NCBI GenBank assembly: GCA_035532555.1
Contig: DATKQS010000024.1
Span: forward strand, 11,225 to 75,224
Length of the DNA stretch: 64,000 nucleotides
Direction of reading: 5' to 3'
DNA from: Thermoplasmata archaeon
GTDB taxonomy: Archaea > Thermoplasmatota > Thermoplasmata > Lutacidiplasmatales > UBA184
The notes under the pieces were generated by a model. It was not told where the DNA came from and ran no database searches. It saw only the letters and a program-made list of their open reading frames with translations. Of the stretch, positions 1-20,968 are shown one piece after another (position 1 is the first letter of the stretch; each line of letters begins with the position of its first letter). The translations under genes and the position numbers were made by a program.

Positions 1-2
1 CC

Positions 3-2233: not shown

Positions 2234-2534
2234 GAAGTTCGATCGTGCAGATCGGCATCGGAGGAGACTACGGACCACTACACTGATCCGTGGCCATTCG
2301 CGTCAGTCGTCAGGAAAGTGGTTCGTAGTAGTACTCACCGACTGACGAGAGCCCGGCCCTTTTCGACGCTCATCCGACCGGCCTACTCGGTGCAAGAGAT
2401 CGCTAACTCCCTGACTGAAACGTGCCGACGAACCCACTTCGGTCCTCCACCGAAGGCGGCGAACCGTTTCCCCGGGGCGACGGGAGATCCGTCCCCCGGG
2501 ACCAACCCAGCCGCTCGAAGTCGGCTCCGCGAGT
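2234..2534. repeat. Repeat copy A: left part is ~88% identical to 29144-29250 and right part is ~80% identical to 15681-15906. It contains a pseudo-copy of the last 9 codons plus stop of ABCE1.
   Basis: Direct alignment of the three regions. The shared core is caggaaagtggttcgtagtagtactc at 2311-2336, which is the reverse complement of ...EYYYEPLS*. The plus-strand ORFs 2105..2554 and 15690..15908 across the repeats show no excess of synonymous changes and are probably not coding. Confidence 0.8.
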
Positions 2535-2673
2535 CCGATGCTCGCCGCGGGTAGTCGGTTTGTTTGGGTCCACGCGGACTTGAACCGACGACCTCCCGGC
2601 TCCGAGCCGGTCCACTCACCCTCGCCTACGCGAAATGCCACTCGGAGGGCCGGGGTTGCACCCTCGTTCCGCT

Positions 2674-3735
2674 TCAAGCAGTCGATGCCGGAATCGGATC
2701 AAGCGGGTGGGCCCTCGTACGTGCCGGTGGTACCTGGTCCGCATACCCAAGGCTCGCTTTGAAACGGTCGATCGCTCCGGTCTCCAAAGGAGCCGATCGG
2801 AGGCGGTCGGCAAGGAAGAGGCTGAAGAAGTCGCCGAGAACGACGCCCCCGAGCGTGTACTCCAGCGAATCGTTCCCAGGGAGTCGAACGACCCGGGCGA
2901 ACGCCGCCCGCCGGCGCACCAAGCGCTCGAAGTGGACACACCCCTGAGCGACCGGTCGCAATGTCTGCGCACAAGTCAGAAGGATAACGCCCCACCGATT
3001 GGCGTCGGAACTCGGGAGCGCATCCCAGCCGGCAATCGCGTTGTGAAACGCACCGGGAAGCTCATCTAACATCGCGAGGCGCTTGGCATTCTCTTCCACC
3101 CCCGTTTTCCAGCGGCGGGCGATCGGCAGGAGACCGGCCTCGGCGTAGATGATCGGGGTCCTTCGCCCGAGAGCCTCAGCGAGAGCTGCGGCCGGACCCC
3201 GAGGACTCGCGTACCGACTCCGCATCCTGTGGATCCGCCGAACCGTGCCGGCGATCCGATCCGCATTCGATACGGCCAGCCAGGAATCGAACAGTCCGAG
3301 GAGCCCCCCTAGGGCGGACCCGACGGTGGTCCGCGGGGGCCGATCGGGAGCGAGCCGAAAGATCGGGACTCCCTCTCGGTCCGCGCGTTCGTGCAGTTGG
3401 CCCCCGGCTGTGAAGACGATACGACACGCGCCGCGCCGTCCGGCCTCCTCGTACGCGCGCAGTACCTCCCAGGTCTCTCCTGAATGACTCGAGAGGATCA
3501 CAACCGAGCCGGGGCCATGCTCGGGAGGAAGCGAGGGGCCTCGGACCACCCGGATCGGCAAGCCTCCCTCTCCGCCGAGGACGACGCTCGCAAGCTCCCC
3601 TGCAGTAGCGGATCCCCCCATGCCGACGATGATCACCGGGGCCCGAGGGATGCGAAGGGCCGAGCCTGACAGGCATGCTCCTTCGCGGAATCCGGGCTCG
3701 ATATGATCGGGCAGCTCGCCGAGGAAGGTGCGCAT
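2674..3735 (-). CDS. SIS-domain bifunctional phosphoglucose/phosphomannose isomerase (archaeal PGI/PMI type)
   Basis: SIS-fold motifs (VIIVGMGGSATAGELASVV..., VVILSSHSGETWEVL) with a PGI/PMI C-terminal region. Start chosen at Met127 of the long ORF (MRTFLGELP); the ATG complement is at 3733-3735. The upstream part of the ORF is Arg-rich junk. Confidence 0.7.
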   Translation of the reverse strand: MRTFLGELPDHIEPGFREGACLSGSALRIPRAPVIIVGMGGSATAGELASVVLGGEGGLPIRVVRGPSLPPEHGPGSVVILSSHSGETWEVLRAYEEAGRRGACRIVFTAGGQLHERADREGVPIFRLAPDRPPRTTVGSALGGLLGLFDSWLAVSNADRIAGTVRRIHRMRSRYASPRGPAAALAEALGRRTPIIYAEAGLLPIARRWKTGVEENAKRLAMLDELPGAFHNAIAGWDALPSSDANRWGVILLTCAQTLRPVAQGCVHFERLVRRRAAFARVVRLPGNDSLEYTLGGVVLGDFFSLFLADRLRSAPLETGAIDRFKASLGYADQVPPARTRAHPLDPIPASTA

Positions 3736-3874
3736 CTGGTCTAGCTCGCTCACCCCAGGGCGAACCGGGGCTAGCGACGGTGAGGAGAATGATTGCGACG
3801 GGGCCTTGCTAGACGAACCGTCGGCGAGCCGGTCCGCTCGTCTCCGGTGGCGGCCGCGCCGGCCAGGGTGCCCC

Positions 3875-5908
3875 TCATCGAACCGCCGGTACATGCGGCG
3901 ACGCTCCCCTCCCTTCTCGGCCCGTCTTCGCGTGCCCGTTCTCCGAATACTGCCTTCGCAGTTGCTCGAATCGACGGGATGCAAAAACGAGGCGCTGCCC
4001 ACCTGTTTCGGTGCGGAATTCGTCCTCCGAAGTCCCTCGACGACGGGCGTGCGCGTTCCGGACGAGGCCCGCGAGCTGCAGGTACGTCGCGAGGAGGGGA
4101 TATGCGATCGCATTCAGCATTCGGATCCCCGTTGGGGCTCGTTGAGTCGCGATGCCGCCCGGCGATCGGGTCCGCGAGTCGTAGAGATAGGGGAGCTCGG
4201 CGCGCATCCACCCGGCGGAGGCCAACACTCCACGATAGTACTCCTCCCCATGGAGCACGTGGACGCTCAGAGCCTCACGGGCAAAGAGCAGATCGCGCGG
4301 TCGCGCGAACTCGGGAGACACCGCGCGATCTTCGAGCACGTAGTTGAGGCACGGGGTCGGGCCTCGGAGGGGAGCCGGTCGTCGCCGCGAGAGGAACAGC
4401 GAGAAGTACGCCCGAGCAAGGAACCACCAGAGCGCGCCGGACCGGGTCACGACGAACAGATCGAGGTCGTCGTCCGGGAGCGGCTCATCGAACGCCACCG
4501 AGCCCGTGATACCGATGCAGCGGACGAGATCCCTACTGAAGGAGAGTGGCCCGCGCCAAAGGGAGTCGGCGAACTGACGAAACTCGAACGCGCGGGGGCC
4601 CCGGTCTCCGGTGGGACTCACGGGCGTCGTCGGCGCGTATGCCTGCGCGTTCCGTACCTGCGCGAGCCACGGTCGCTCTCGGAGCCAGCGTTCGAGCGCG
4701 TCGACGCTCTCCGGTCCGTTGGCGGGGAGGAGCCGCTGGAGTCTCTCAAGGGGGATGCCGGTCCCGAACTCGCCTGCGACGAGAAGAAGCGACGCCACCC
4801 GGCGCTCCGTTGGGGTGGCGCCTGACGCCCCATCGAAGCTGGTCGACGATGACGTGCCCTGGGCGCCCGGCGGGGGCGTGGAGGAACCAATGCGCCGCCA
4901 ACGTACGTGGTCCCGTCGAGGCGGCAGCCGATCCCACGCCGCCAGACCATGGGCCGCGAGTTCCCACGTCGCCAGTCGGGCCAAGTGTCCAAGCCCCCCT
5001 TCGCGGTCAATCATCCCTCGGACCACTCGGACCGTGGCCGCCGGGTGGCGAAGGAACTCGCGGGGAATCGTCGCCGGGGCGTCCCCCAATACGGAGGAGA
5101 CCTGGGCATTGCCGACGTGGATTCGTCGCCGCTGGTGGAGATGGTCGCGCACCTCAGAGGGAACCCGGATCGAAACTCGGGCGTCAGGCGCGTACCACCC
5201 GCCCCCGGCATGCTGCGACAGCCAGACGGCGAGGTACGATCCGTCGTTGATAATCCCGTCTGGGATGGCTGGCACGCTCGGCAGACTTACGAGGAGCAGC
5301 TCGTCGGAAAGATGGCGACCCTCCCCGCGGGCGAGCAGCTCCGCATGGAACTCGTGGTGGAGGTCCCACATCCATCGGAACGTGGGGGCCCACCGCCCCG
5401 GCGCATCGTCCGGGACCACCGGACGCGCCATCACCGCATACGGAGCTGCCCGTGCTGCCCCGACCCGTACGAGTTCCGCGATTGCTCCGGGCTCGGCTCG
5501 GGCATCGCCATTGAGCAGCACAAGGGCATTCCCTTCGGCCCGCCGGAACACCTCTTGGAGGGCCCGGGCCTTTCCCCGGCGTTCCGGCTCCGTGATCAAG
5601 CGCACCCGGCGATCCTCTGACACAAGTCGCTCCGCGATCTCTACGGTCCGGTCCGCGCAGCCGCTCGCGACAATCCACAGGTCATTCCACCGAACGTCCG
5701 AAGGCAGTTCTTGGTCGAGTAGCGAGCGCACGGCCCCCTCGAGGTTCTGCTCCTCGTTGTAAGCGACGATCCCCCCGGAGAGGTTCGTTGGCGACTTCTC
5801 CTCGTACGTAAGGTTGTAGCCGGCAGACAGCCGAGGTGCGCTCGAGACCGACACGTTACTCTCGCCCCAAGCGGAGCGATGGCCCCACATCTGCCGGAAG
5901 CCGCGCAC
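3875..5908 (-). CDS. Family-2 glycosyltransferase fused to a C-terminal minimal nucleotidyltransferase (Pol-beta-like) domain
   Basis: N-terminal GT2 signature (GGIVAYNEEQNLEGAVRSL...LWIVASGCADRT...LLNGDA). The C-terminus has GITGSVAFDEPLPDDDLDLFVVT, the GS-x9-D-x-D nucleotidyltransferase motif. The start codon is uncertain. Confidence 0.65.
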   Translation of the reverse strand: MRGFRQMWGHRSAWGESNVSVSSAPRLSAGYNLTYEEKSPTNLSGGIVAYNEEQNLEGAVRSLLDQELPSDVRWNDLWIVASGCADRTVEIAERLVSEDRRVRLITEPERRGKARALQEVFRRAEGNALVLLNGDARAEPGAIAELVRVGAARAAPYAVMARPVVPDDAPGRWAPTFRWMWDLHHEFHAELLARGEGRHLSDELLLVSLPSVPAIPDGIINDGSYLAVWLSQHAGGGWYAPDARVSIRVPSEVRDHLHQRRRIHVGNAQVSSVLGDAPATIPREFLRHPAATVRVVRGMIDREGGLGHLARLATWELAAHGLAAWDRLPPRRDHVRWRRIGSSTPPPGAQGTSSSTSFDGASGATPTERRVASLLLVAGEFGTGIPLERLQRLLPANGPESVDALERWLRERPWLAQVRNAQAYAPTTPVSPTGDRGPRAFEFRQFADSLWRGPLSFSRDLVRCIGITGSVAFDEPLPDDDLDLFVVTRSGALWWFLARAYFSLFLSRRRPAPLRGPTPCLNYVLEDRAVSPEFARPRDLLFAREALSVHVLHGEEYYRGVLASAGWMRAELPYLYDSRTRSPGGIATQRAPTGIRMLNAIAYPLLATYLQLAGLVRNAHARRRGTSEDEFRTETGGQRLVFASRRFEQLRRQYSENGHAKTGREGRGASPHVPAVR

Positions 5909-6004
5909 GCGATTCGGTCACCACGCTCCAATCGAGGGGGGCCACGACGAGCTCAGTGTCGGCGCTTCCGAGCCGTCCCGCCGACAGAATCGATCGCGGC
6001 AGAG

Positions 6005-6982
6005 CTACTCCTCCGCATACTCGCTGTCGGAGAGTTGCTGCCGGACTCGGCGCGCTCCGACGGCGATGATAACCGAGACGACTCCCGCGAGACTCCCCAC
6101 GACCACAAGCTCGTAGAGGGGGATGCCCGCGATGGATGAGGGAACCGGAATCCCGATCACGGCCGCGTACCGAAGGGAGGAAAACTCTCCTGCCCCGGAG
6201 CCGATCGTCAGGTTGACCGACGCGAAGCTCGGAGTCAGCCGGATGAGGGGTACGACACCGACCGGCTCTGTGCGGCCCCCGACGCCGGCCGCGGTGGCGT
6301 TGTCCGAGAGCACCAGATACTCCCGGAGGGCTCCGGTCGCGGTGGACGAGCTTGTGATCTCGAGCGCGTCCGGGCCGGATGCGCCGAGACGCTCGGTGGA
6401 GGCGAATGCGGGCCAGACGGGAAGGTTCACGACGAGATGATCTCCCGAGGCCTGCCAGGTCCAGTTGGAGATTTGGAGAAGCGCCTCGACCGAGCTCGCA
6501 TTCCCTTCGTAGGCGTCGCCCCCTCCGGCGAGGATGTAGTCCACTTGGACCTCGGTCGTTCCGATCGGCGGTGCGGGTGCGCCGGGGACCACGAGCACCA
6601 GATCGGCGGTGTAGGCGAGGTCGAACTCGCTCGGGGTGCTCGCGTTCCGGAGCGTCCAGTTAGCTCCTGCCCAGTCGGCGAGGGCGACCACTTGGCCCGC
6701 CGGACTGACCTCGGCGATCCCCGCGACACCGGAGGAGAGGCCCGACTGCGGGACGTCCACCGCCGCGACCGCGACCGATGGGCTGGTCAGGTTGAAGTCG
6801 CACGCCACGAGTCCGTTGTTCCATCCGAGCGATGTCGACGGGGTCCACCGTCCCGAGGCGCCTTGCGCGGCGGCGAGCGGAGAGATCGCAACGATGAGTG
6901 CGAGGGTCACCGCAAACCCCGCCATCGCGAGGGCGACGGGAGCGGTGGCCCGGGCCCGGCTCCTCCTGCCATCTGCGATCAT
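6005..6982 (-). CDS. Secreted or surface-anchored glycoprotein: N-terminal signal with twin-Arg and hydrophobic segment, many N-x-S/T sequons, C-terminal TM anchor
   Basis: MIADGRRSRARATAPVALAMAGFAVTLALIVAISPLAAAQG signal peptide. At least 10 NxS/T sequons (NLTS, NWTL, NASTP, NASS, NWTW, NATA, NLTI...). C-terminal LYELVVVGSLAGVVSVIIAVGARRVRQQ anchor. The composition is Thr/Ser/Ala-rich. Confidence 0.65.
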   Translation of the reverse strand: MIADGRRSRARATAPVALAMAGFAVTLALIVAISPLAAAQGASGRWTPSTSLGWNNGLVACDFNLTSPSVAVAAVDVPQSGLSSGVAGIAEVSPAGQVVALADWAGANWTLRNASTPSEFDLAYTADLVLVVPGAPAPPIGTTEVQVDYILAGGGDAYEGNASSVEALLQISNWTWQASGDHLVVNLPVWPAFASTERLGASGPDALEITSSSTATGALREYLVLSDNATAAGVGGRTEPVGVVPLIRLTPSFASVNLTIGSGAGEFSSLRYAAVIGIPVPSSIAGIPLYELVVVGSLAGVVSVIIAVGARRVRQQLSDSEYAEE

Positions 6983-7060
6983 TGCGAAGGATGCGAGACG
7001 CTCCCAAGGTAACCCCTTTTTTGGTCCAAGTACGGAATCCATTGGTTCAGAGGCGCACCG

Positions 7061-7588
7061 CTATCGACGAAACAACTCAGACCAGGTTTCGAAGGCCCGT
7101 TCCACCCACTCGTCCGCCGGCCCGCTCCGGTACGTGACGAGGATTCGCGCGACACCCGCCGCATCGGTGACCTCGAACGTTCGGAGGCGACCTTCGCGTC
7201 CGGGTCGAACGACCCCGGTTTCGACGAGCCGTCGCAGATGGACCGAGAGGCGGCCGGCGCTCAAACCAGTTCGAACCTTCAGATCGGGAACGGTCTGGTG
7301 CGGAGTCTTGAGCAGCGCGATGAGGAGTCGGCGCGCCGACGCCGATCGCATGAGACGCAGGATGCGACGGTCGCCGAGCGGCACGCTCGCCACGAAGTAA
7401 TGGTCCTGGCGCTCGCTGCGCTCGCGATGGAGCAACCCCGACCCGGTAAGTCGATCGAGGTGATAGACCGTCTCGCCCCAACCCGTCCCGGCCTTTCGCT
7501 GGGCTTCCCGTCCGCTCAGCCCCGGAGTTCTCCGAACCGCGTCGTAAATGCGTCTTCGGGTCTCGAGGGCGAGCGGGTCCTCCTCCAT
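7061..7588 (-). CDS. Winged-helix (ArsR/MarR-like, tandem wHTH) transcriptional regulator
   Basis: Two HTH-like segments: RRRIYDAVRRTPGLSGREAQRKAG...VYHLDRL, and RRLLIALLKTPHQTVPDLKVRTGLSAGRLSVHLRRLVETG. Confidence 0.6.
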   Translation of the reverse strand: MEEDPLALETRRRIYDAVRRTPGLSGREAQRKAGTGWGETVYHLDRLTGSGLLHRERSERQDHYFVASVPLGDRRILRLMRSASARRLLIALLKTPHQTVPDLKVRTGLSAGRLSVHLRRLVETGVVRPGREGRLRTFEVTDAAGVARILVTYRSGPADEWVERAFETWSELFRR

Positions 7589-7591
7589 CGG

Positions 7592-7906
7592 CTAGCGGCG
7601 GCGGGGCCAGAGCGTGGTCGCCAAAAACAGAAGCGATGCGAGGAGCGCGAGCGTGAGGACGGGGAGTGCGGCGTCCGCGAACGACGGCGGGCCGACCGGT
7701 AACTGCCCCCACGTCCACACCGCTCCGAGGGCCGCTAGGACGAGGTTCGCCGAGGCGATGAGGAGAAATCTCGCATCCCGCACTCGGGTCCACGCCGCCA
7801 CGGTGACGCCGGCATTGATGGCAGAGACTCCCACGATCAGAATCGCGACGAACAGCTCGGCGAGACCCATGGAACGCAGGATGGGGCCCCCCCGGGTTAA
7901 AGCCAT
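7592..7906 (-). CDS. Small integral membrane protein (3 TM)
   Basis: Hydrophobic helices (LAELFVAILIVGVSAINAGV..., LLIASANLVLAALGAVWTW..., LPVLTLALLASLLFLATTLW). Start taken at the internal Met (MALTRGG). Adjacent to and co-directional with the wHTH regulator. Confidence 0.45.
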   Translation of the reverse strand: MALTRGGPILRSMGLAELFVAILIVGVSAINAGVTVAAWTRVRDARFLLIASANLVLAALGAVWTWGQLPVGPPSFADAALPVLTLALLASLLFLATTLWPRRR

Positions 7907-7998
7907 CGACTCGCCGAACGGGTTTGGACCAAGTAATTCCGTGTTTGGACCAAAAAGAGAGTGACACCCTCGACCACTCGACCGTTCGGAGCGATCGC

Positions 7999-8472
7999 AT
8001 GACGAGCATTCGGGACCGACTTGCAGATCCGGCCTTCTACTCACTCCCGTTCTTCCTCGCGTTCGCCCTCTCGGTGGTCATGCTGGCCACCGACAAGAAT
8101 CTCCAGACGAACTTCGGCACGGTCTCGAGCGGCTACTACTTCCATTGGTACGTCGTGCTGGTCACCGCCGTCGCGGAGATCGCCGGCGCGGTGCTCCTGC
8201 TCGTTGTTCGTTCCCGCGCCGCGTTCATCGGCGGGGTGATCGGCTCCGGCCTCCTGGCAGCGATCTTCCTCGGCGATATCTTCGCGTACAGCCAGGTCGG
8301 ATTCTCTTCGATGACCGACTTCGCGAACTACCTCTTCGGGATCACCTACTACGGGGGCAACATCCGCTACCTGTATGATGTCCTGCTCGCCGTCTATCTC
8401 GCGACGTTCCTCTTCGGACTGGTCGCGCTCGCCTTGACGCGACGGCCCCGGGCGAGCCCTCCGCGCGCGTGA
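7999..8472 (+). CDS. Integral membrane protein (4 TM), unknown function
   Basis: Hydrophobic profile. Start taken at MTSIRDRL. Confidence 0.45.
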   Translation: MTSIRDRLADPAFYSLPFFLAFALSVVMLATDKNLQTNFGTVSSGYYFHWYVVLVTAVAEIAGAVLLLVVRSRAAFIGGVIGSGLLAAIFLGDIFAYSQVGFSSMTDFANYLFGITYYGGNIRYLYDVLLAVYLATFLFGLVALALTRRPRASPPRA

Positions 8473-8542
8473 TCGGCGGAGCGATCGTTCGATCGGGGTT
8501 CGCGACCCACGGGGCGAGCGATCCCCGAAGCAGGTCGGCATC

Positions 8543-9862
8543 GTGAAACTTCCGGCGGTGGCGTGGAAGATTCTCCTCGCCGGGATCCTTCTTCGAGAGG
8601 CGTTCTCGTTCTGGACCGGAAACCCGTACGACCTTGAGGTCTGGATCCGTACGGGCCATGCCGCCGCGCAGGGCATCAACCCGTACGTGTCGTTCTGGCC
8701 GCCGGTTCCCTCGGTCAGCTTCGCCTTCTTGAACACCAATCTGCCGTCGGCAGCCTACCTTCCGTTCTGGCCCGCCGTCCTCGGGGAGATCTATCGGCTG
8801 TGGGAGGTAATCGGAGGCGGTAATCGCTTCGTCCTGTACTTCCTCATCAAGCAGCCGCCGATCCTGGGAGACGCCCTCACGGCGGTGCTCCTGTACGGAC
8901 TGACCCTGCGCTGGACCGGAAGGAGCGCGTCCGCGCTCGGGGCGCTCGCGTTCTGGTCGCTCTTCCCCTATGCGATCCTGATCTCGGCGATCTGGGGCCA
9001 GTTCGATTCGCTCGTGGTCGCCGCGATCCTCGCCGGTTTCTGGTACCGCAATCCGATCGAACGAAACCTCCTGTACGGCGTCGGCATCTTCGTGAAACTG
9101 ATCACGGCGATCTACCTCCCGCTCGAGTTCTTCCGGGCGCGCGGCGTGCGCCGGTTAACTTTCCTCGTGGCCCTTGCCGTCCCGGTCGCGTTGACCGTCC
9201 TTGTGCTCACCGCGGAAGGGTGGGGGTTCGGCGGGATCACGTCGACCGGACAATCCCAAAGTGCTGGGGGGGGCGGTGGAATGAACCTCGCGGGCGTGCT
9301 GACCGCGGCGCCCTTGGTGACCGTCCTCTCGACGGTCCCTCACTTGTTCACGTTGTTCTCCTACTTGTGGGTGCCCGGCGCGATCCTGGCCGGCTATGTG
9401 GCCGCTCGGTGGATCCGCCCGAACGACCCTCAGACGGAGTTGCGCGCCATGATGCTCGTCACGACTGTGTTCCTGCTGTTGCGCTGGGGCCTCTACGAAC
9501 AGTACATGATCTACATCTTTGCCCTGATGGCCCTCGACAGCGCGGCGTTCCATCCGGACCGCCGATCGTACCTCGTCTACCTCTGGTTGCTCTCGCTGGT
9601 CTTCCTGCTCATCAACAACGACCTCGGAGCCCGATTCGTCACCCCGCTCGACACCAATCTCTGGCCCACGCTCAGCAACTTCGACCAGAGTTCCGTCTAC
9701 GGGACCGTCCGATCCTGGGCGCTCGAGATCCTGGACGTGGTCGTCACGTTGAGCCTCGTCCAGTGGATCGTCGAGCTGGTACGGGACGGCGCTCGTCCCG
9801 TCCCGTGGCTTTGGCCGTGGACGAAATCCGCCGCGCTCGCCGCTCGGCCCTCCGAACCGTGA
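8543..9862 (+). CDS. Polytopic membrane protein, GT-C-fold glycosyltransferase-like (DUF2029 / PMT / mannosyltransferase-like)
   Basis: About 11-12 TM helices. N-terminal loop with the conserved D/E (WTGNPYDLEVW). Aromatic- and Pro-rich loops typical of GT-C enzymes. Lies in a glycosyltransferase neighbourhood. Confidence 0.55.
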   Translation: MKLPAVAWKILLAGILLREAFSFWTGNPYDLEVWIRTGHAAAQGINPYVSFWPPVPSVSFAFLNTNLPSAAYLPFWPAVLGEIYRLWEVIGGGNRFVLYFLIKQPPILGDALTAVLLYGLTLRWTGRSASALGALAFWSLFPYAILISAIWGQFDSLVVAAILAGFWYRNPIERNLLYGVGIFVKLITAIYLPLEFFRARGVRRLTFLVALAVPVALTVLVLTAEGWGFGGITSTGQSQSAGGGGGMNLAGVLTAAPLVTVLSTVPHLFTLFSYLWVPGAILAGYVAARWIRPNDPQTELRAMMLVTTVFLLLRWGLYEQYMIYIFALMALDSAAFHPDRRSYLVYLWLLSLVFLLINNDLGARFVTPLDTNLWPTLSNFDQSSVYGTVRSWALEILDVVVTLSLVQWIVELVRDGARPVPWLWPWTKSAALAARPSEP

Positions 9863-11040
9863 ACGGACCGGGCGTTCCCCACGCGGGGAGCGATCTCCGC
9901 ATCGTGGAACTCACCCAACGATTCCCCCCAGCCATCGGGGGAGTCGAGCGGCACGTGAAGGACCTGGCGACGAACCTCCACCGGACAGGAGCGTCGGTAG
10001 AAGTCATTACGTCGGATCTCTACCGCGACCGCCCGTTCACGCGTCTCTTCACCGCGTCGGAACCGCTCCCATTTCCGGTACGGCGGCATCGAGCGTTCCG
10101 CGGCTTTCCGGCCCCCCACGGACTCGGGATCGCTGCTCCCGGCATGGCGTGGGACGCCCTGCGCCTCACTCACGCAATCGTCCACGCCCACGCCTTCGGC
10201 TTCTTCCCTACGTGGGCCGGGCGCCTGGCCCAGCAACTCCGAGGGTTGCCACTGGTCATCACTCCGCATTTCGACGGAGGATCGGGCTCCCGACTCTACG
10301 CTCGAGCGGTGGCACGAGGGACGTTAGCCGGGGCAGACCGGGTGGTCGCGCTGACCCAGAGCGAGGCCATCTCGTTGGCGACCCTCGGAGTGGATCGCGA
10401 ACGGATTCGGGTGATTCCCAACGGGATCGGAACGGAGGATTTCCTCCCGAGGCGCGGTCCCAGGCCCGATGCCGGTCCGGTCACAATCCTCTACGTCGGC
10501 CGCATCGACCCCGAGCAGAAGGGACTCGACGATCTCCTTCGTGCAGTGGCTCTGCTGGAACGACCGGAGGCGGTATCGGTTCGACTGGTCGGGGAAGACT
10601 GGGGAGGAGCTACTGCCCTTCGATCTTTGGCAACGGGACTCGGGATCGACCACGTGATCATCTGGACGGGCGCCGTACCCCAGGACTCCCTCCGGCGCGA
10701 ATACGCCTCGGCGGACCTCTTCGTTCTCCCCTCCCACTTTGAGCCGTTCGGGATCGTGCTGTTGGAGGCGATGGCGGCGGGCCTACCGGTGCTCGCGACA
10801 CGGGTTGGAGGCATTCCGGAGGTCGTAGCGGACGGGGTCACGGGATCGCTGGTCCCATCGGGAGATCCTTCGGCCCTAGCCCACGCCCTCGACCGGCTGG
10901 CCTCCGATCCCTTGCTTCGGACCCGGCTGGGCGATTGTGGGCGCACGCGGGCACTCGATTTCAGCTGGCCGCGTTTGATCCCGAAATTTCTCGAGCTGTT
11001 CCACGAACTCGTCCGTGACGCATCTGGGTCCAGGCTCTGA
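9859..11040 (+). CDS. GT4 (GT-B fold, glycosyltransferase family 1) glycosyltransferase
   Basis: RIVELTQRFPPAIGGVERHV and EPFGIVLLEAMAAGLPVLATRVGGIPEVV are GT4 motifs. GTG start at 9859 overlaps the TGA of the upstream gene (GTGA). The long ORF 9220..11040 upstream of this is out-of-frame overlap with the GT-C gene. Confidence 0.75.
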   Translation: MNGPGVPHAGSDLRIVELTQRFPPAIGGVERHVKDLATNLHRTGASVEVITSDLYRDRPFTRLFTASEPLPFPVRRHRAFRGFPAPHGLGIAAPGMAWDALRLTHAIVHAHAFGFFPTWAGRLAQQLRGLPLVITPHFDGGSGSRLYARAVARGTLAGADRVVALTQSEAISLATLGVDRERIRVIPNGIGTEDFLPRRGPRPDAGPVTILYVGRIDPEQKGLDDLLRAVALLERPEAVSVRLVGEDWGGATALRSLATGLGIDHVIIWTGAVPQDSLRREYASADLFVLPSHFEPFGIVLLEAMAAGLPVLATRVGGIPEVVADGVTGSLVPSGDPSALAHALDRLASDPLLRTRLGDCGRTRALDFSWPRLIPKFLELFHELVRDASGSRL

Positions 11041-11518
11041 TGGACGTGAATGACACGCTCAGCGTCGCCCGCCTCATAGGCGATGCGGGGTGGCCCCACA
11101 GTGAGATGACCACCACGCCCTGCGAATCGAAACGCAGCCCGGGTTGCGGGGATATCCCCCGGCGGGGTTTCGGAGCCTGCGTTCTTCAAAACAAAGCCGG
11201 GGTGTGGGGAAGAGCTCGGATAACGGATTACCGGCTCGCCGTGGCGACGCCGCGCTCCGCGCTCCCCGAAGGGGGCGTAGTGCGACTTTGTGAGTCACTC
11301 GGGCGCGGTGTTTGACGGCCGCACGGCAAAACGACAATCGTACCGGCGCGGGGTGCCCGCCGAAGCCATCGACCTGCTCCTGGTCCATCGCGCTGCCAAG
11401 TCGCTCGGAGAGACATGGGATCGGAGTGCTGCGAGGCAGGGTCTCCATGTTGATGGCCTGCGCATGAGGGGAGCGCGAAGGCGCGCCACGAAAGCGGGAT
11501 GGCGGCAGTGCGGTAGGC

Positions 11519-11746
11519 CTATGCGCCGTTTGGATAGAGCGTGGAAATCAGTTCGAGGACTTGGGGCGTGCTGTATCCCGCGCGAGCCACGACTCGATCC
11601 TGGGTTCGGACTCGCTTAATCCCGAAGAACGTTCGGCTCACGAAAAGGAGGTAGGAATACCGCTTCATCGTGAAGCCGACGATTGCGCCCCCCGGTTCCA
11701 TCAAAATCTTGATAGTGTGATGTTCCGCAATCCAGCGCCGCACCAT
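11519..11746 (-). CDS. Hypothetical small protein in a locally low-GC patch (possible gene remnant)
   Basis: 75-aa ORF (MVRRWIAEHHTIKILMEPGGAIVGF...) inside a ~280-bp stretch of clearly lower GC, in the otherwise gene-free 11.04-11.9 kb interval. Confidence 0.25.
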   Translation of the reverse strand: MVRRWIAEHHTIKILMEPGGAIVGFTMKRYSYLLFVSRTFFGIKRVRTQDRVVARAGYSTPQVLELISTLYPNGA

Positions 11747-11905
11747 AGGCCCGGAAGCGATACAGACATTCTGACATATAGCAGATCGGCGGACAGAACT
11801 GCATCCACCCGACGACCGCCGAGCGGAGGGGGGCGTCTGCCCGGTGACCGCCGATCCGTCCCGCGGTCCCTTTCCAGGCGCGTCGGTGGCCCTACGCCCG
11901 ACCGA

Positions 11906-13138
11906 TCACGGGCCTGCGCTCGCCGCATGCGTATCGTGGCGAGAGAGGACCATCAGGAAAGAGTCCCCGAGAGATCGAAACGGCCCCCAGCGACCAATCC
12001 GCTCGTCCCAATGCGCAAGGAGGTCGAAGCGTCGCGAGAACCGTTCGACCCACTTCGCTCGGTTCGGCGGCGGGAGGAGGACTGTAACTCCTTCCAGCCA
12101 TTCCATTGAGAACTCCTCCTCGAAGCTCCGGCGAAACTCGTCGGGAGAATAGGCGTACGCGTCCACGCGGAAGCGGGAGAACCCAGCCCGGACGTGTCCT
12201 CGTACACGGCCCTGCACCTGACGGAATCGCCCCGAGAGACCGTACGCCATGATGTCGAACAGGCACCAGCGATTGTAGACCCCCGCTACGAATCGAGCCG
12301 GCGGGCGGAGCAGGGTCCCTAACGCGGCGGACACCGCCCGCAGGTCGGCCTCGCAGTTGAGCGCTCCGTAGGTCGAGTATCCCCCTTCGAACGCTCTGGG
12401 TCCATACTCCGCTTCCAATGTCGATAGCACGGACGCGCCAAGTCGCCGGGTCCGCAACCGCTCCCCGACCCCGGCAGCGCGCGCCTTGGACCGGACGATC
12501 TCCAACATGCGTTCTGAGATGTCCACACAGAGAATCTCATGGCCTGCCTCGAGCAGGGGAAGGGTCTCCAGGCCCGTGCCACAACCGATCTCTAGTAGAT
12601 GGTAGGAGGAGCGAAAGCACTCCTCGAGGAGGCGCGACGAGCGCTCGCGGAGCAAACAGCTGATCCGGTTGGTGGCGATCTGTTCGTCATATTCCGGCGC
12701 GATGCTATCGAACTCCGCGGTCAGCCAGCGGAGGTACGAGACTCCGTCGGGGGTCGGCCGGACTTCGGGAGATCCCAACTCGATGCGTAGGACGCGATCG
12801 GACCGTTCGAACCAGCGGGCAGAAGCCGCGTCCCCGTACTTTAATCGGAACAGCCCCAACACGCGAGCCCTCTCCTCCGGAGCGGAGAGGAGGTAGGGGG
12901 CTCCCTCTAACGTCCCTGCCGAAACATGGACGCGAGCCATTCCACGTCGCAGAACCTCGACCGGCCACACCGCTGAAGGATCCGAAGCGACGAGAAATAT
13001 CGTGGTCGATTCTCGAACGAACCGCAACGGGACCCGCCCGGAGGCAAGGAGGAGCTGGAGGAGATCCGGCTCCCCCGGCTCAGAGGTCACAAATCGCTCA
13101 TGCACAGAGGTCGCTCCGATTTCCCGAGGATCCGGCAC
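11906..13138 (-). CDS. Two-domain protein: N-terminal ~170-aa domain of unknown function fused to a class I SAM-dependent methyltransferase
   Basis: The MTase motif I (LLEIGCGTGLETLPLLEAGHEILCVDISERML) is in the central part. The N-terminal ~170 aa (ending ...DSIAPEYDEQIA) has no recognisable motif. Confidence 0.7.
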   Translation of the reverse strand: MPDPREIGATSVHERFVTSEPGEPDLLQLLLASGRVPLRFVRESTTIFLVASDPSAVWPVEVLRRGMARVHVSAGTLEGAPYLLSAPEERARVLGLFRLKYGDAASARWFERSDRVLRIELGSPEVRPTPDGVSYLRWLTAEFDSIAPEYDEQIATNRISCLLRERSSRLLEECFRSSYHLLEIGCGTGLETLPLLEAGHEILCVDISERMLEIVRSKARAAGVGERLRTRRLGASVLSTLEAEYGPRAFEGGYSTYGALNCEADLRAVSAALGTLLRPPARFVAGVYNRWCLFDIMAYGLSGRFRQVQGRVRGHVRAGFSRFRVDAYAYSPDEFRRSFEEEFSMEWLEGVTVLLPPPNRAKWVERFSRRFDLLAHWDERIGRWGPFRSLGDSFLMVLSRHDTHAASAGP

Positions 13139-13472
13139 GACCGCATGTAGGTACGAAGGGTTGAGGTCATGGTGGAAGGATAGGCGTTCGTCTGTGCCGT
13201 GGATGTCTAAGCGGGTATATCACCGCCTCCGCCACGGCAGACGCGCTCGCGAGCAGGGCCCGCGGTCTCGCGCTAGAACGATTCGGGACACCACCTGTCG
13301 ATAGCGACGGATCCAATCTGGTGTCGCGGTTTTCTGGCTCGCGCCGCCATTGAAATCGAGGCGACCGAAGAGGACTCACATCGGAGGTCTGTTTCCCTAC
13401 TTCTCGCAGGATTCTACAAGGACGAGCGCAGACCCTTGCGACCGGGCTAGCGAGGGCCGGCGGGTGGGGCAC

Positions 13473-14411
13473 TCACACTCCCTTCCCATCGGGTGGGCTT
13501 GTGGAGGACGGCCGTAGACCTTCATGATATCCTTGGATGAGCGCGATGAAAAGAGCCATGGGTCGGCCATCTGGGCGCACGATCGCGGCCAGCATCTTGG
13601 GGACCAAGAACCCGAGGGCGTGGTAGCTCGCGCGTACCACGAAGAGCGGACGAGTACCGTTCCACCGTCGGTGGAATCGGAGCCAGTCCATCACCTCCAA
13701 GCGCGCGCGTGCGGGGTCACCCACCGTGTGCTCGGCCCAGTATCCCGGAATTCCGGGCGGCTCCACATCGTGCTCCGTGAGGATACCCGTATTCGCGCAG
13801 ACGTACCAGCCGGCCTTCTTCAGGCGCTGGCAAAAGTCCGCTGAGCTGTTCACCGGCAAGCATTCGTCGAATCCGCCGACCTCGCGGAAGGCATCCCAGC
13901 GGACCATAGATAGGTTCGGGAGGGCGTCAGTATCGAGGAGCTTCCCTTCGAGGTCCGGGCGCCGCGGGCGGTTTCGACCGACCAAGGAGAATCCCCACCG
14001 ATCCGTGCGGAATGGGGTCGCGTACACCCAGATGAGCGCGGGACGGCGATGATAGAGGACCGCCGGCATCACCGCGCCACACCGCGGATCTCGATCGAGC
14101 GTGCCAGCGAGTTCTGCGAGAAGCTGAGGTGGGAGGCGATTGTCATCATCGATGAAGACCACGTAGGGGGTCCCGGTCCGGGCAGCTCCCAGGTTCTTCG
14201 CGCGTGAGATGAAGAGCCTACGCTCGGAGCGGATCACAATCAGTGGCAAATCGGGAAACGCTCGATCCCAGGGAACAGGCGGATCGGAGTCGTCCACCAC
14301 CACGACCCGGATCGGGGCTCGACTTTGGACTCGCAAGTCCTGGAGCAGGTTTGTCAACCGCCTGGGACGATCTCGCGTGACGATGACCACGCTGAGGGGT
14401 ACTGCCTCCAT
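13473..14411 (-). CDS. Family-2 glycosyltransferase
   Basis: LSVVIVTRDRPRRLTNLLQDL...VVVVDDSDPP...FIDDDN, the GT2 DxD/DDD signature. Confidence 0.8.
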   Translation of the reverse strand: MEAVPLSVVIVTRDRPRRLTNLLQDLRVQSRAPIRVVVVDDSDPPVPWDRAFPDLPLIVIRSERRLFISRAKNLGAARTGTPYVVFIDDDNRLPPQLLAELAGTLDRDPRCGAVMPAVLYHRRPALIWVYATPFRTDRWGFSLVGRNRPRRPDLEGKLLDTDALPNLSMVRWDAFREVGGFDECLPVNSSADFCQRLKKAGWYVCANTGILTEHDVEPPGIPGYWAEHTVGDPARARLEVMDWLRFHRRWNGTRPLFVVRASYHALGFLVPKMLAAIVRPDGRPMALFIALIQGYHEGLRPSSTSPPDGKGV

Positions 14412-14557
14412 TCCGTGACTCTACCGCATTCCACTTCATCGGGACTTCTATCGGTATCGGCCTCCGGGACATTCTCCTCGAGGAGGGAGGGAGGCGCCCG
14501 CATCAATCGGACGGAGATCTGCGAGCCCGCGACTCCGAATCAACAGGAAGGTTCTCT

Positions 14558-15511
14558 CTACCCGGTCCCCCCGCCGCGGGGAAACATCTCGCGGAGGAGG
14601 CCGGGAACACCTGCTCGATAGCTGGAGTACTGCGTCCTCCAGCCCAGCTCCCTGAGCTTAGCGTTTGAGGTGGGCCGGTCGGCAGCGAGATGTCGCGCGA
14701 CCGTCTCTCCCATCTCACGCACCGCCTCCTCAAGGGCGAGGTTTCGCGGGGGTGGTGCGCCGAGTTCGGCGGCAACAAAATCGGCAAACTCGCGAAGGGG
14801 GGCCGGATGCCCATCCACGACGTTGTACACCTCACCGGCCGACCCCGATTCGAGAACGGTGCGGAACGCTGACCCGGTATCCCACCGGTCGATGAATGAC
14901 CAGCGGTTCGCCCCTTCGCCGACGACCCTGTAATCTCCGACCCGGATCGATTCTGCCATGTAGCGGAACCACGACCCGTTCCCATAGACCATCCCCGGAC
15001 GCACGGCCAGCACCTCCAAACCATCCTGCGTGTTCGCTTCCAAACCGGCCCGCTCCGCGTCGTAGTTGATCTGCGACTCGCCCCGAGGATCGACGGGTGA
15101 GTCCTCACCGATTGGCCCTGGCTGACCGCTGTACACCCAATATCCTGAGCCGATCACGAGACGAGATACCCCTTCCCGTAGAGCTACCTCCACGAGATTC
15201 CGGGCACCCTCAACGCGTACTCTTGTCGGGTCCTCTCCCACCGGAGGGTTCGCTGCCACATGGATAACCCCCGAGCAGCCCGACACGGCCATTAGAAGGG
15301 AGGGAACGTCCAGAATGTCCCCCAGCACCGGGGTTCCTCCATCCTCTGTGACGCGAGCCCCCTTGAGTGGGTCGCGGACGAGGCCTCGCACCTCGTGGCC
15401 GGCCCTCGATAAGGCTCGAACGACCGACCGACCCAGGAAACCGCTGGCACCGACCACGAGAACCCTGTCCACCTTGCCGACCCTGACAGGCGAAGCGACC
15501 GTCGTCGGCAT
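14558..15511 (-). CDS. NAD-dependent epimerase/dehydratase (extended SDR)
   Basis: N-terminal Rossmann motif VLVVGASGFLGRSVVRALSRAGHEVRGLVR, with length and architecture of NAD(P)-dependent sugar epimerases. Confidence 0.8.
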   Translation of the reverse strand: MPTTVASPVRVGKVDRVLVVGASGFLGRSVVRALSRAGHEVRGLVRDPLKGARVTEDGGTPVLGDILDVPSLLMAVSGCSGVIHVAANPPVGEDPTRVRVEGARNLVEVALREGVSRLVIGSGYWVYSGQPGPIGEDSPVDPRGESQINYDAERAGLEANTQDGLEVLAVRPGMVYGNGSWFRYMAESIRVGDYRVVGEGANRWSFIDRWDTGSAFRTVLESGSAGEVYNVVDGHPAPLREFADFVAAELGAPPPRNLALEEAVREMGETVARHLAADRPTSNAKLRELGWRTQYSSYRAGVPGLLREMFPRGGGTG

Positions 15512-16717: not shown

Positions 16718-16762
16718 CGGCCGGCGGGGCCGCGGTCGGTAGGATCTTCCCTCGGACGGTGC

Positions 16763-20943: not shown

Positions 20944-20968
20944 TGGCTGATGTCCTTCCGTAGGCTGC

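Follow-up and report, generated by a model that had tools for sequence, protein, structure and literature searches.

A putative mosaic cell-envelope glycan gene cluster among integration scars at the 3' end of ABCE1 in a soil Thermoplasmata archaeon

Introduction

The DNA analysed here (the window) is a stretch of 64,000 nt from an uncultured soil Thermoplasmata archaeon. A first-pass annotation had described the interval 2674-15511 as a strain-variable N-glycosylation cassette with its own glycoprotein, exchangeable between two flanking repeats, A and B. This raises the questions of which glycan such a locus would make and how it came to lie between repeats. The interval holds a genuine set of cell-surface glycosylation genes under their own regulation; its arrangement is of a known kind, and a few of its enzymes are unstudied. 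We describe it by protein families, folds, synteny and motifs only, from which we infer the enzyme chemistry. Our main reading, with a probability of roughly 0.65, is a mosaic cell-envelope glycan locus with a putative lipid-linked-glycan chemistry, inside a recombinase-less island of integration scars at the ABCE1 3' end.

Results

Gene content and regulation

All enzymes of the cluster were matched by Pfam families in a search combined with gene calls (Table 1). The genes would form three parts: a minus-strand operon for a small TM protein, the double-wHTH regulator, the surface protein, the GT2::NTase-fold fusion and PGI/PMI; a divergent plus-strand operon for a small TM protein, GT-C and a translationally coupled GT4; and a replaceable accessory block of small proteins, methyltransferase, GT2 and SDR.

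Table 1. Positions of the cluster genes, control sites and repeats in the window
Feature	Position	Strand	Evidence or remark
Flank of tail_A	2228..2309		87-89% identical to 29139-29220, which adjoin the genuine ABCE1 stop on its downstream side
tail_A	2310..2336	-	27 nt identical to the ABCE1 end with its stop codon; att-type scar, distal block edge
Arm E_A	2337..2567		adjoins tail_A; 82% identical to 15709-15939
tRNA-like fragment	2575..2650	-	anticodon arm and T arm; weak evidence
PGI/PMI, bifunctional-type phosphoglucose/phosphomannose isomerase	2674..3894	-	bact-PGI_C, E=8e-23
GT2::NTase-fold fusion, 671 aa	3875..5890	-	Pfam GT2; motif and fold neighbours
Type-I surface protein	6005..6982	-	signal peptide, ~270-aa ectodomain, C-terminal TM; ORF extendable to 7042
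Palindrome TTGGTCCAA	7021..7029		upstream of surface-protein gene; candidate operator
Double wHTH regulator	7061..7588	-	HVO_0163_N and HTH_24/MarR-like (Pfam)
Small membrane protein, 104 aa	7592..7906	-	leads the minus-strand operon; also conserved in L089 and L092
Two TTGGACCAA palindromes	7924..7953		divergent promoter region
Small membrane protein, 157 aa	7999..8472	+	first gene of plus-strand operon
GT-C membrane glycosyltransferase, GT87-like	8543..9862	+	Pfam, E=2e-8; fold
Recombination breakpoint	9475..9775		identity to L089 falls from 93-97% to ~69%
GT4 glycosyltransferase	9859..11040	+	start overlaps GT-C stop by 4 nt
91-aa ORF, no assigned function	11040..11315	+	gene call
75-aa protein	11519..11746	-	62% identical to protein adjoining methyltransferase in L093
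SAM-dependent methyltransferase	11906..13138	-	Pfam; N-terminal ~140 aa unassigned
GT2 glycosyltransferase	13473..14411	-	Pfam
NAD(P)-binding extended SDR (epimerase/dehydratase family)	14558..15511	-	Pfam; NCBIfam sub-cut-off
tail_B	15682..15708	-	copy of the ABCE1 27-mer, 1 mismatch
Arm E_B	15709..15939		part of next block, 15.7-29.2 kb
Second GT4	19669..20943	-	outside the interval, in the second block in window order
ABCE1/RLI gene	29221..30996	-	29221-29247, its final 27 nt, form the core of the repeats

The PGI/PMI, the polytopic GT-C protein, the methyltransferase fused to an N-terminal part matching no family, and the wHTH regulator with two adjoining small TM proteins were found as first annotated. 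Other assignments held in part. Two GT4 enzymes and one GT2 had been listed; the GT2 is present, but a single GT4 lies within the interval, and the second belongs to the next block. GT2 subfamily calls were generic, the NCBIfam matches all being below cut-off. The supposed NAD-dependent sugar epimerase does belong to the NAD-binding extended SDR family, but its best NCBIfam matches were reductases, all sub-cut-off; this SDR was absent from the cluster of the other genomes examined.

The fusion protein consists of GT2, a wHTH-like linker and a C-terminal Pol-beta/ANT-like nucleotidyltransferase-fold domain. The assignment of the last is supported by an invariant GS..DDxD motif and by its only fold neighbours, AadA, ANT(4') and MNT (TM 0.2-0.5, Foldseek E about 0.01), and its Pfam support was sub-threshold only, NTP_transf_2 remaining below cut-off. 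The fusion itself was thus confirmed, whereas the earlier identification of this half as a sugar-nucleotidyltransferase was rejected on motif and fold.

TTGGWCCAA palindromes occur at 3 sites in 64 kb (0.09 expected), all in control regions of the cluster and conserved in the relatives L089 and L092. The promoter-region position holds two copies in L089 and one in L092, and the palindrome was absent from clusters lacking the regulator among the relatives compared. These palindromes are candidate operators of the double-wHTH regulator, which would bind before both operons and before the surface-protein gene.

The surface protein has the signal peptide and C-terminal TM described earlier, but seven N-x-S/T sequons were counted instead of at least ten. 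This is ~5 times the 1.5 expected from composition, and only 0-1 of 2000 shuffles reached seven. Five of the seven are positionally conserved in a 44%-identical ortholog, which carries eight sequons against 2.1 expected.

The GT-C enzyme and its predicted product

Structure modelling of the GT-C protein (pLDDT 90.7, pTM 0.91) predicted a GT-C fold with high confidence. In the model it is closest to enzymes that use lipid-linked sugars: the best PDB neighbour was GPI mannosyltransferase I (PIG-M-type) with Dol-P-Man (9wno_A GPI-MT-I, TM 0.62/0.66), beside PimE (9dm5/9dm7, TM 0.53-0.65) and ALG6 (6snh, TM 0.64/0.59). D30, E32, K185 and H337 are invariant among 44 homologs. D30 lies at the start of the first juxtamembrane helix, and the catalytic base of PimE, D58, is at the tip of JM1 (PMC12041525). 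Searches with the GT-C sequence or profile gave no match to solved structures, PimE included, and the donor, acceptor and sugar given below are read from the fold neighbours only.

An identity of GT-C with the oligosaccharyltransferase AglB/STT3, for which comparison with AglB models had been proposed, was rejected: there was no STT3 Pfam match and no WWDxG motif, and the TM scores with AglB/OST were only 0.35-0.40 compared with 0.53-0.66 for PIG-M-type, PimE and ALG6 structures. Therefore, the N-glycosylation step itself is not encoded in the interval. What stands of the N-glycosylation cassette is a glycosylation and surface cluster with a sequon-enriched protein.

PGI/PMI would feed hexose phosphates into the pathway, and a lipid-linked glycan would be made or lengthened on the cytoplasmic side of the membrane by the soluble GT4 and GT2 enzymes. 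Once this glycan has been flipped, GT-C would transfer a hexose (probably mannose) outside the membrane, from dolichyl/polyprenyl-phosphate-hexose to a lipid-anchored glycan, and the methyltransferase and the NTase-fold domain would decorate the glycan. The finished product may remain on the lipid as a lipoglycan or pass to proteins by an AglB encoded elsewhere.

If it remains on the lipid, the cluster would encode a glycolipid or lipoglycan pathway comparable to PIM/LM synthesis in mycobacteria or GPI synthesis in eukaryotes, a serious possibility that we place somewhat below even odds. GT4 (PimA/PimB/PIG-A-like) would glycosylate a membrane lipid in the cytoplasm, and GT-C (PimE/PIG-M-like) would extend it outside with mannose from polyprenyl-phosphate-mannose. 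GPI-MT-I and PimE as top fold matches, the Pfam assignment of GT-C to GT87, its strict coupling to GT4 and a supply of mannose-6-phosphate by PGI/PMI are all consistent with such a pathway, as are the better NCBIfam matches of GT4, among them MshA and a lipid GlcNAc transferase, none of which reached the cut-off. A glucose/mannose tetraether lipoglycan dominates the membranes of cultured Thermoplasmatales (PMC12448462). However, the listed GT-C homologs all come from uncultured MAGs, with no cultured species among the source names, and a link to this known lipoglycan is therefore putative. GT-C moreover has no sequence-level match to PimE, and a lipoglycan leaves the sequon-rich protein of the operon unexplained.

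That protein would find its place in a dedicated N-glycosylation cassette, whose enzymes assemble and finish an N-glycan for transfer to the adjacent surface protein and others by an AglB that is encoded elsewhere; the role of GT-C would then be that of AglS in Haloferax, to attach the last hexose, taken from Dol-P-hexose, outside the membrane. We consider this pathway tentatively, as possible but rather doubtful. It agrees with the sequon enrichment and conserved sequon positions of the same-operon protein, with the mix of GT2, GT4, methyltransferase, isomerase and GT-C, which resembles haloarchaeal agl clusters, and with ALG6, an enzyme of the lipid-linked N-glycan precursor, being among the best fold matches. 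The surface filaments of Thermoplasmatales are very heavily N-glycosylated (PMC12448462). Yet Pfam identified neither AglB/STT3 nor a flippase in the interval, more distant relatives keep GT-C and GT4 but have no adjoining surface protein, and the two best fold matches of GT-C act on glycolipids.

Conservation and mosaic structure

The cluster core comprises GT-C with the overlapping GT4, the GT2::NTase-fold fusion, the methyltransferase and GT2, and was represented by well over 100 Thermoplasmata MAG proteins. Homologs numbered 237 for GT-C and at least 167 for the fusion, every source name given being Thermoplasmata or Thermoplasmatota, and many pairs of these homologs coming from contigs of equal length. 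GT4 adjoins GT-C in all related clusters examined (5 of 5 other contexts); the fusion was found in three of these, the methyltransferase in three and a separate nearby GT2 in four. Closer relatives also keep the surface protein, the double-wHTH regulator with conserved TTGGWCCAA sites and the two small membrane proteins. By sequence comparison, the core is not strain-specific: its gene content and partly its gene order are conserved in many Thermoplasmata MAGs in other genomic contexts.

Identity to L089 was 93-97% over 2575-9475 and ~69% over 9775-11015, with no homology beyond, the drop falling in the 3'-terminal part of the GT-C gene. GT4 is 72% identical to its L089 counterpart, and the methyltransferase shares only 50% identity with its counterparts in L089 and L092; GT2 showed no homology at E<1e-3 to the GT2s in the same role there. 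These alignments indicate a mosaic cluster, with the left two-thirds ~95% identical to L089 and the GT4/methyltransferase/GT2 part swapped. The variability claimed earlier is supported by this replaced half. The tRNA-like fragment coincides exactly with the left edge of the L089 homology; the evidence for it is weak.

Integration scars at the ABCE1 3' end

The last 27 nt of ABCE1 occur in three direct copies in the window and had no match in the shuffled window. An arm of ~230-260 nt with 82% identity is common to A and B, and the tail copies and arm bound two blocks of ~13.4 kb each, the cluster occupying the second from ABCE1. An assembly artefact is unlikely, because contigs from other samples, 100% identical to the window, span repeats A and B with the arrangement unchanged, and another spans the ABCE1 end.

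In related contigs, the arm forms an end of an integrative element of 6.7 kb that encodes a tyrosine integrase and a serine recombinase. The whole element, in L105 and L107, consists of a tail copy, the arm E homolog between this att copy and the serine-recombinase gene (Resolvase, E=1e-37), cargo, Phage_integrase (E=5e-15) and the ABCE1 tail. Integrase remnants adjoin the ABCE1 stop in eight relatives (Pfam Phage_integrase E=2e-11 in one), and ABCE1-tail duplications were also found in three relatives. Synteny with relatives stops at the ABCE1 stop codon or within ~10 nt of it; in the closest relative (94% nucleotide identity over 7 kb), homology ends within ~10 nt of the ABCE1 stop. Among 67 relatives with at least 1.5 kb of sequence downstream, a ThiS-ThiF/PALP block follows ABCE1 directly in 34 and after 0.5-9 kb of unrelated DNA in 23, and was not reached in 10; about half carry 0.5 to >10 kb of unrelated DNA at this site. 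On this sequence evidence, A and B are attR-type scars, left by integrative elements whose target in this lineage is the ABCE1 3' end.

Pfam and gene calls detected no integrase, resolvase or other gene of such an element in the window. With both recombinase genes lost, the island is fixed; the repeats mark an exchange-prone site, as first proposed, but present-day exchange through A and B is not supported. At twice the length of the intact elements, the blocks contain ordinary metabolic genes and, instead of being cargo, may be chromosomal DNA that was relocated by recombination between scars. The two blocks have GC3 values of 0.77 and 0.75, versus 0.87 in the syntenic core (p<1e-4). The variable region, of at least two blocks, runs left past the sequence examined. 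Comparative genomics, suggested earlier as a check, gave a divided answer: the island genes were absent within 10 kb downstream of ABCE1 in all 80 relatives, but the core gene content is widely conserved elsewhere; no ABCE1 tail was found near the same cluster in other genomes.

That the cluster is ordinary vertically inherited DNA, set by rearrangements between tail repeats that are unrelated leftovers of small elements, would suit blocks without element genes, a lineage-wide cluster with PhoU, a GltD-like gene and OCD as recurrent neighbours in distant relatives, and the OCD gene 4.5 kb left of the cluster here (59% identical to the one adjoining it in L093), but it is unlikely, since the GC3 of cluster genes differs from the syntenic core, the L089 homology begins on the left, at 2575, no more than 10 nt from the inner boundary of arm E_A, and none of the 80 relatives has the cluster at this place downstream of ABCE1.

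Comparison with known systems

The C-terminal domain of the fusion shares the GS..DxD motif with its fold neighbours AadA, ANT(4') and MNT, and differs in being fused to GT2, with low TM and sub-cut-off Pfam scores.

In the Haloferax volcanii agl cluster (AglD, AglS, AglP), GT2/GT4 enzymes, a SAM methyltransferase and a sugar-phosphate enzyme occur with an outer-face Dol-P-hexose transferase, and the glycoprotein targets are sequon-rich. The role of AglD is stated in PMC2877612. Likened by gene classes, the present cluster has the same clustered GT2/GT4, methyltransferase and sugar-phosphate enzyme, a predicted outer-face transferase and a sequon-rich candidate target, and its GT4 gave a weak Agl16 match, whereas it has no AglB, a GT-C of another family and no identified flippase.

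PIG-M/Gpi14 (GT50) and ALG6 (GT57), the best and third-best structural neighbours of GT-C (TM 0.62-0.66 and 0.59-0.64), both take their sugar from Dol-P-sugar on the non-cytoplasmic side. They are likened to it by fold, at 12-16% sequence identity, and PIG-X, the partner subunit of PIG-M, is not present in the cluster.

With the mycobacterial PIM/LM/LAM set (PimA/PimB GT4, Ppm1 GT2, PimE GT87) the cluster shares the triad of enzyme classes, a GT87 Pfam match above cut-off, PimE among the best fold matches and an invariant Asp that starts the first juxtamembrane helix, like D58 of PimE. In contrast, its host is archaeal, with ether lipids and a dolichol-type carrier, GT-C has no detectable sequence similarity to PimE, and the NTase-fold fusion, methyltransferase, wHTH regulator and surface protein are extra.

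Integrative elements and islands with tyrosine integrases target the 3' ends of tRNA or protein genes and restore the target on insertion. The present target is the ABCE1 protein gene, not a tRNA gene, and the intact relatives carry a serine recombinase besides the tyrosine integrase, both lost from the blocks of the window. In common with such elements are the directly repeated 3' end of the target, the integrase convergent with and adjoining the target in relatives, the tandem accretion, the variable site occupancy and the atypical base composition.

Gene content of the glycosylation cluster

The window belongs to a metagenome contig of 243 kb (ENA ERZ27256801 k141_910329) from an uncultured Thermoplasmata archaeon. 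Most of the genes listed by the first-pass annotation for the interval between repeats A and B, hereafter the cluster, were borne out by Pfam matches and by the collection's own gene calls. The PGI/PMI protein scored 81 bits against Pfam bact-PGI_C, which is above the cut-off, and matched the NCBIfam equivalog models with E=7e-42, yet stayed under their cut-offs. No cluster protein could be named by an NCBIfam match reaching a curated cut-off. The annotation had counted two GT4 enzymes; one lies inside the interval and the other belongs to the next block. The collection's gene call for this second GT4 covers the C-terminal 199 aa only, the 424-aa ORF has both GT4 domains, and the gene start was probably mis-called. 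The supposed NAD-dependent sugar epimerase is an extended SDR whose best NCBIfam matches are reductases, all below cut-offs.

Coordinates and strands of the features described in the text
Feature	Coordinates	Strand	Basis or remark
ABCE1 tail copy A	2310-2336		exact
Arm E peptide beside copy A	2339-2551	+	
tRNA-like fragment	2575-2650	-	
PGI/PMI	2674-3894	-	Pfam and collection gene calls
671-aa GT2 fusion	3875-5890	-	Pfam and collection gene calls
Secreted protein with C-terminal anchor	6005-6982	-	Pfam and gene calls
Regulator with two winged-helix domains	7061-7588	-	Pfam and gene calls
Small membrane protein	7592-7906	-	gene calls
Small membrane protein	7999-8472	+	gene calls
GT87-type GT-C	8543-9862	+	Pfam and gene calls
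GT4, start overlapping GT-C stop	9859-11040	+	Pfam and gene calls
Methyltransferase with additional N-terminal domain	11906-13138	-	Pfam and gene calls
GT2	13473-14411	-	Pfam and gene calls
Extended SDR	14558-15511	-	Pfam and gene calls
ABCE1 tail copy B	15682-15708		1 mismatch
Arm E peptide beside copy B	15711-15923	+	
Second block	15940-29220		
Second GT4	19669-20943	-	424-aa ORF
ABCE1 tail at real gene end	29221-29247		0 mismatches
Thiolase-like gene	58658-59791	-	window core

The GT-C enzyme is related in fold to PimE and GPI mannosyltransferase I

The GT-C protein matched Pfam PF09594 (GT87) with 34.6 bits (cut-off 25, E=2.2e-8), and the identical protein at NCBI is named 'glycosyltransferase 87 family protein', so its earlier assignment as a glycosyltransferase stands. 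At least 237 homologs of 48-91% identity were found, and every name given by their sources is Thermoplasmata or Thermoplasmatota. In an alignment of 44 sequences, D30 is invariant and E32 nearly so, both lying shortly past the first TM helix; K185, R204, and H337 were also conserved. The AlphaFold2 model (pLDDT 90.7, pTM 0.91) has a polytopic GT-C fold with juxtamembrane helices, and its top four Foldseek matches in the PDB were all GT-C enzymes, including PimE. TM-scores were 0.62/0.66 with GPI mannosyltransferase I bound to Dol-P-Man, 0.53-0.65 with PimE, and 0.64/0.59 with ALG6. No PDB chain was matched at the sequence level, either by the single sequence (E<=1) or by the 44-sequence profile (E<=10). 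The first juxtamembrane helix of PimE carries the catalytic base, D58, at its tip (PMC12041525); D30 lies at the start of model helix 28-42, a place that may be equivalent to that of D58. Going by the fold neighbours, the donor would be polyprenyl-phosphate-mannose.

The comparison with AglB proposed by the first-pass annotation indicated that the enzyme is not the oligosaccharyltransferase: there is no STT3 Pfam match and no WWD motif in its 439 aa, and TM-scores with AglB and eukaryotic STT3 were 0.35-0.40. In two loci from more distant relatives, a second GT-C paralog of 46-47% identity directly follows the GT-C and GT4 pair (L094 12522-13979, L095 13039-14412).

A GT2 domain fused to a nucleotidyltransferase fold

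The whole architecture of the 671-aa fusion is kept in at least 167 proteins of 630-740 aa. The only PDB relatives of its N-terminal GT2 domain are of the GtrB and DPMS types, and these are weak (E 5e-6 to 1e-3). A GS..DDxD motif is invariant among 46 sequences of the C-terminal half (G123, S124, D134, D135, and D137 of the fragment), which fits the Pol-beta-type motif G[GS]x9-13Dx[DE]. Pfam NTP_transf_2 matched three orthologs at this motif, although below threshold (E=0.008-0.16, 13-17 bits vs cut-off 21), and the C-terminal domain had no sequence-level link to solved structures. When the C-terminal 331 residues were modelled (pLDDT 88), the top 19 Foldseek matches were all nucleotidyltransferases (AadA, ANT(4'), MNT, and minimal NTases), with probabilities mostly of 0.8-0.99 and E-values of only about 0.01-0.06. 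Since the fold neighbours are essentially all Pol-beta-type nucleotidyltransferases, the original name, GT2-nucleotidyltransferase fusion, is right at the fold level.

The surface protein and a candidate operator

The surface protein starts with a signal peptide (RRSRAR, a hydrophobic core, and AAAQG). The rest of the chain comprises ~270 ectodomain residues and a C-terminal TM helix with a short charged tail behind it. It is thus secreted and C-terminally anchored as first described, with seven N-x-S/T sequons instead of the ten or more reported. Seven is still well above the 1.5 expected from composition, and is reached by 0-1 of 2000 shuffles. A 44%-identical ortholog has eight sequons vs 2.1 expected, five of them at coinciding positions, and the other proteins of the region have 0-3 each. 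Judged from these counts, the surface protein is very probably an N-glycoprotein. This status does not make the cluster the source of its glycan.

Three copies of the palindrome TTGGWCCAA were found in the 64 kb, vs 0.09 expected. One precedes the surface-protein gene by 40 nt, counted from its 325-aa start, and two are inside the 92-nt divergent region separating both operons. The same sites are present in L089, a close relative with a similar cluster, and in L092 despite only 65-68% identity of the cluster DNA, and the loci without the regulator (L093-L095) are also without the sites. We infer that the sites are putative operators of the double winged-helix regulator.

A conserved core and an exchanged half

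The conservation of the cluster was examined in five other genomic contexts. The GT-C and GT4 genes were adjacent in all five, usually overlapping; the fusion and a 390-416-aa methyltransferase were each found in three, and a separate 270-340-aa GT2 was close by in four. Down to 68% GT-C identity (L089, L091, L092), the cluster also keeps the regulator, the surface protein, and both small membrane proteins. The flanks of these loci differ, and none of the five has an ABCE1 tail near the cluster. The pathway is therefore lineage-wide and not a strain-specific invention, its core being conserved.

The idea of a variable cassette found its best support in the comparison with L089. The DNA is 93-97% identical from 2575 to ~9475 and ~69% identical at 9775-11015, with no homology beyond, and the break falls within the 3' end of the GT-C gene. 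Likewise, protein identity to L089 is 88-98% from PGI through GT-C, 72% for GT4, and 50% for the methyltransferase, and the GT2 has no match in L089. A 75-aa protein is closer to that of the much more distant L093 (62%) than to that of L089 (31%). Thus, comparison across relatives, as the annotation had proposed, revealed a core that is kept but a half that is swapped: the half that would set the detail of the glycan has been replaced. At the strain level, every contig from other samples carrying the exact proteins was 100% identical to and colinear with the window, and no alternative arrangement was seen among them.

Two neighbouring genes were recorded at related loci. A TnpB gene adjoins the cluster in L091/L092 (16160-17404). 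Here, an OCD gene is located 4.5 kb to the left of the cluster; its 59%-identical counterpart in L093 directly adjoins the cluster, and this could be a trace of older synteny.

The repeats are copies of the ABCE1 3' end

The window contains three direct repeats of the final 27 nt of ABCE1, a stretch that includes the stop codon; the 27-mer had no matches in shuffles of the window. Copies A and B share arm E, an adjoining stretch of 230-260 nt, at 82% identity, and copy A and the real ABCE1 end share the opposite-side flank at 87-89%. Substitutions between the two arms are 3-periodic (4, 22, 12), and a putative plus-strand peptide is conserved in nine metagenome copies, with a 4-nt indel in three relatives. 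This peptide (..PFSxLIRPxYSxxEIAxSLxETCRR..) runs opposite to the ABCE1 strand and could function as a small regulator, directionality factor, or leader. Arm E is not an integrase remnant, as integrase peptides of L009 and L044 had no tblastn match in the window.

ARAGORN and Rfam detected no tRNA or known RNA in the repeats (gathering scores; E<=1 on 1800-3000). A tRNA-like fragment, consisting of an anticodon arm with CAG and a T arm, sits exactly where the homology with L089 begins (4013-4077, minus strand, in L089). It could not be aligned well with a real tRNA-Leu(CAG), and the L089 copy scored 15 bits, below the Rfam threshold.

The integrase search and the exact 27-mer search of viral contigs revealed no free element or virus, and the exact 27-mer was not found in JGI metagenome contigs. 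A degenerate arm-E pattern retrieved 14 metagenome loci. Two of them, L105 and L107, contain an essentially complete element of ~6.7 kb adjoining ABCE1, which starts with a tail copy, arm E with its short conserved ORF, and a serine recombinase (Resolvase, E=1e-37), continues with small membrane and zinc-ribbon proteins and proteins of 394 and 147 aa, and ends with a full-length tyrosine integrase (E=5e-15) and the ABCE1 tail. The arm E ORF of L107 (79-360, plus strand) overlaps the start of the serine recombinase. From the order of this element, repeats A and B are recombinase-side (attR-type) element ends. No integrase or recombinase gene is present in the window; those once beside the repeats are deleted, and the repeats are dead integration scars. 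The picture of an exchangeable locus bracketed by A and B thus holds in part: the site is genuinely exchange-prone and half of the cluster was swapped, but the repeats are dead.

The GC3 of the genes in the two tail-delimited blocks is 0.77 and 0.75 vs 0.87 in the syntenic core (p<1e-4). Each block is twice as large as an intact element and carries ordinary-looking genes, with none of the element's own among them. Enlarged cargo is one possible origin, and chromosomal DNA that recombination between scars has moved is another. The second block encodes DUF2249, two hemerythrin-like proteins, an Fe-S assembly protein, CopD, GT4, an FNR-like reductase, an HTH_10 regulator, a ferredoxin, and DUF488, without a recombinase, and looks like a redox or O2/NO-stress gene set. 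To the left of copy A (window 1-1478 and the adjoining L086 1-10500) are two copies of ChrB_C, a YHS-domain P-type ATPase, ABATE/zf-CGNR, AhpC, and an OCD-like gene. Because copy A has a flank 87% like the one at the real ABCE1 end, a third block derived from an element may be present.

The ABCE1 3' end is a recurrent integration site

The ABCE1 protein of the source organism shares 75-98% identity with its counterparts in 80 Thermoplasmata MAGs, and synteny upstream of ABCE1 is kept in relatives. Homology with the closest relative, L007 (98% protein and 94% DNA identity over 7 kb), stops ~10 nt or less from the ABCE1 stop, and no homologs of either block's genes were found within 10 kb downstream of ABCE1 in the 80 loci. 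The first gene after ABCE1 in L007 (12556-13689, plus strand) is a 62%-identical paralog of the thiolase-like gene in the window core.

Site occupancy was counted in 67 loci with at least 1.5 kb of sequence downstream of ABCE1. A conserved block of a bPH protein, a ThiS-ThiF-rhodanese fusion, and a PALP enzyme directly follows ABCE1 in 34, comes after 0.5-9 kb of unrelated DNA in 23, and is unreached in 10. Neither this block nor the left end of the variable region lies in the window or the 9 kb to its left. Contigs end less than 900 nt downstream of ABCE1 in 12 of the 80 loci (L006, L012, L018, L022, L026, L044, L054, L057, L060, L069, L072, L077), which is expected if repeats or strain variation at a hot spot break assemblies.

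Eight relatives have the C-terminal half of a tyrosine integrase, which converges on ABCE1 and ends at a distance of 30-60 nt from the ABCE1 stop; that of L044 passes Pfam Phage_integrase. Integrase or recombinase genes are present at the same site in L008, L009, L044, L105, and L107, and second tail copies in L009, L013, and L040. Other cargo includes TnpB, a group II intron reverse transcriptase, an ABC-2 transporter, citrate synthase, Pirin, and a PKD/NHL surface protein. The variable DNA of L021 (16636-17925) and L014 (15399-16865) carries group II intron reverse transcriptase and TnpB/Cas12f-like genes. The window ABCE1 ends ...EYYYEPLS*, most relatives (L006-L085) end ...EYYYE(P/A)AA*, and insert-bearing relatives often end ...S* and continue 'TGAcg(t/a)g'; the last ABCE1 codons look rewritten by integrating elements.

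The site shares three traits with site-specifically integrated genomic islands, namely 3'-end direct repeats, variable occupancy among relatives, and atypical composition; the integrase or recombinase gene of such islands is absent from the window. In soil Thermoplasmata, the essential ABCE1 gene has at its 3' end a recurrent integration hot spot, which can help to locate their mobile elements and to make sense of contig breaks in MAGs.

A candidate surface-glycan pathway and its known counterparts

Wall-less Thermoplasmata meet acid, metals, viruses, and neighbouring cells mainly through the glycans on their surface. To our knowledge, most genes making their glycans and lipoglycans are without assignment. 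The locus offers a compact, conserved, and apparently self-regulated candidate pathway with a candidate operator, which combines a PimE/PIG-M-like GT-C, a coupled GT4, and a previously unstudied fusion of GT2 with an NTase fold. A candidate glycoprotein is encoded beside it, and it provides a natural case of half a pathway exchanged between close relatives.

The glycosylation cluster is real, and the N-glycosylation step itself is not encoded in it. We commit to a reading in which the GT-C would act at the outer face, taking a hexose from a polyprenyl-phosphate carrier and adding it to a glycan anchored on lipid. The finished product may be a lipoglycan (probability about 0.4), consistent with the PIM/GPI-type enzyme logic and with the glucose/mannose tetraether lipoglycan that is the main envelope component of cultured Thermoplasmatales (PMC12448462). 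An N-glycan is an almost equally likely alternative, for which the Dol-P-hexose finishing step and the methyltransferase of the haloarchaeal agl type can be cited. It is improbable, though conceivable, that the GT4, the GT-C, and the GT2::ANT-like fusion form an archaeal PIM/GPI counterpart making a mannose-rich lipoglycan or lipid anchor, in which the NTase domain adds a nucleotidyl or phosphodiester decoration new for archaeal glycans, the whole pathway having been moved, and part of it swapped, by an ABCE1-targeting integrative element.

Two known logics fit the enzyme set to the same degree. In the PIM/GPI logic, a cytoplasmic-face GT4 is followed by an outer PimE/PIG-M-type GT-C using polyprenyl-phosphate-mannose, and the GT4 and GT-C of the cluster fit this order. 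In the haloarchaeal agl logic, a Dol-P-hexose-dependent finishing step is combined with a methyltransferase, which the enzyme set fits as well. The cluster shares with agl clusters several glycosyltransferases, sugar-modifying enzymes, and a sequon-rich surface protein, as judged by Pfam and the sequon count. It differs from them in that no AglB/STT3 is present in or beside it among the proteins scanned across 1-31 kb. The arrangement is of a known type, with a few parts previously unstudied.
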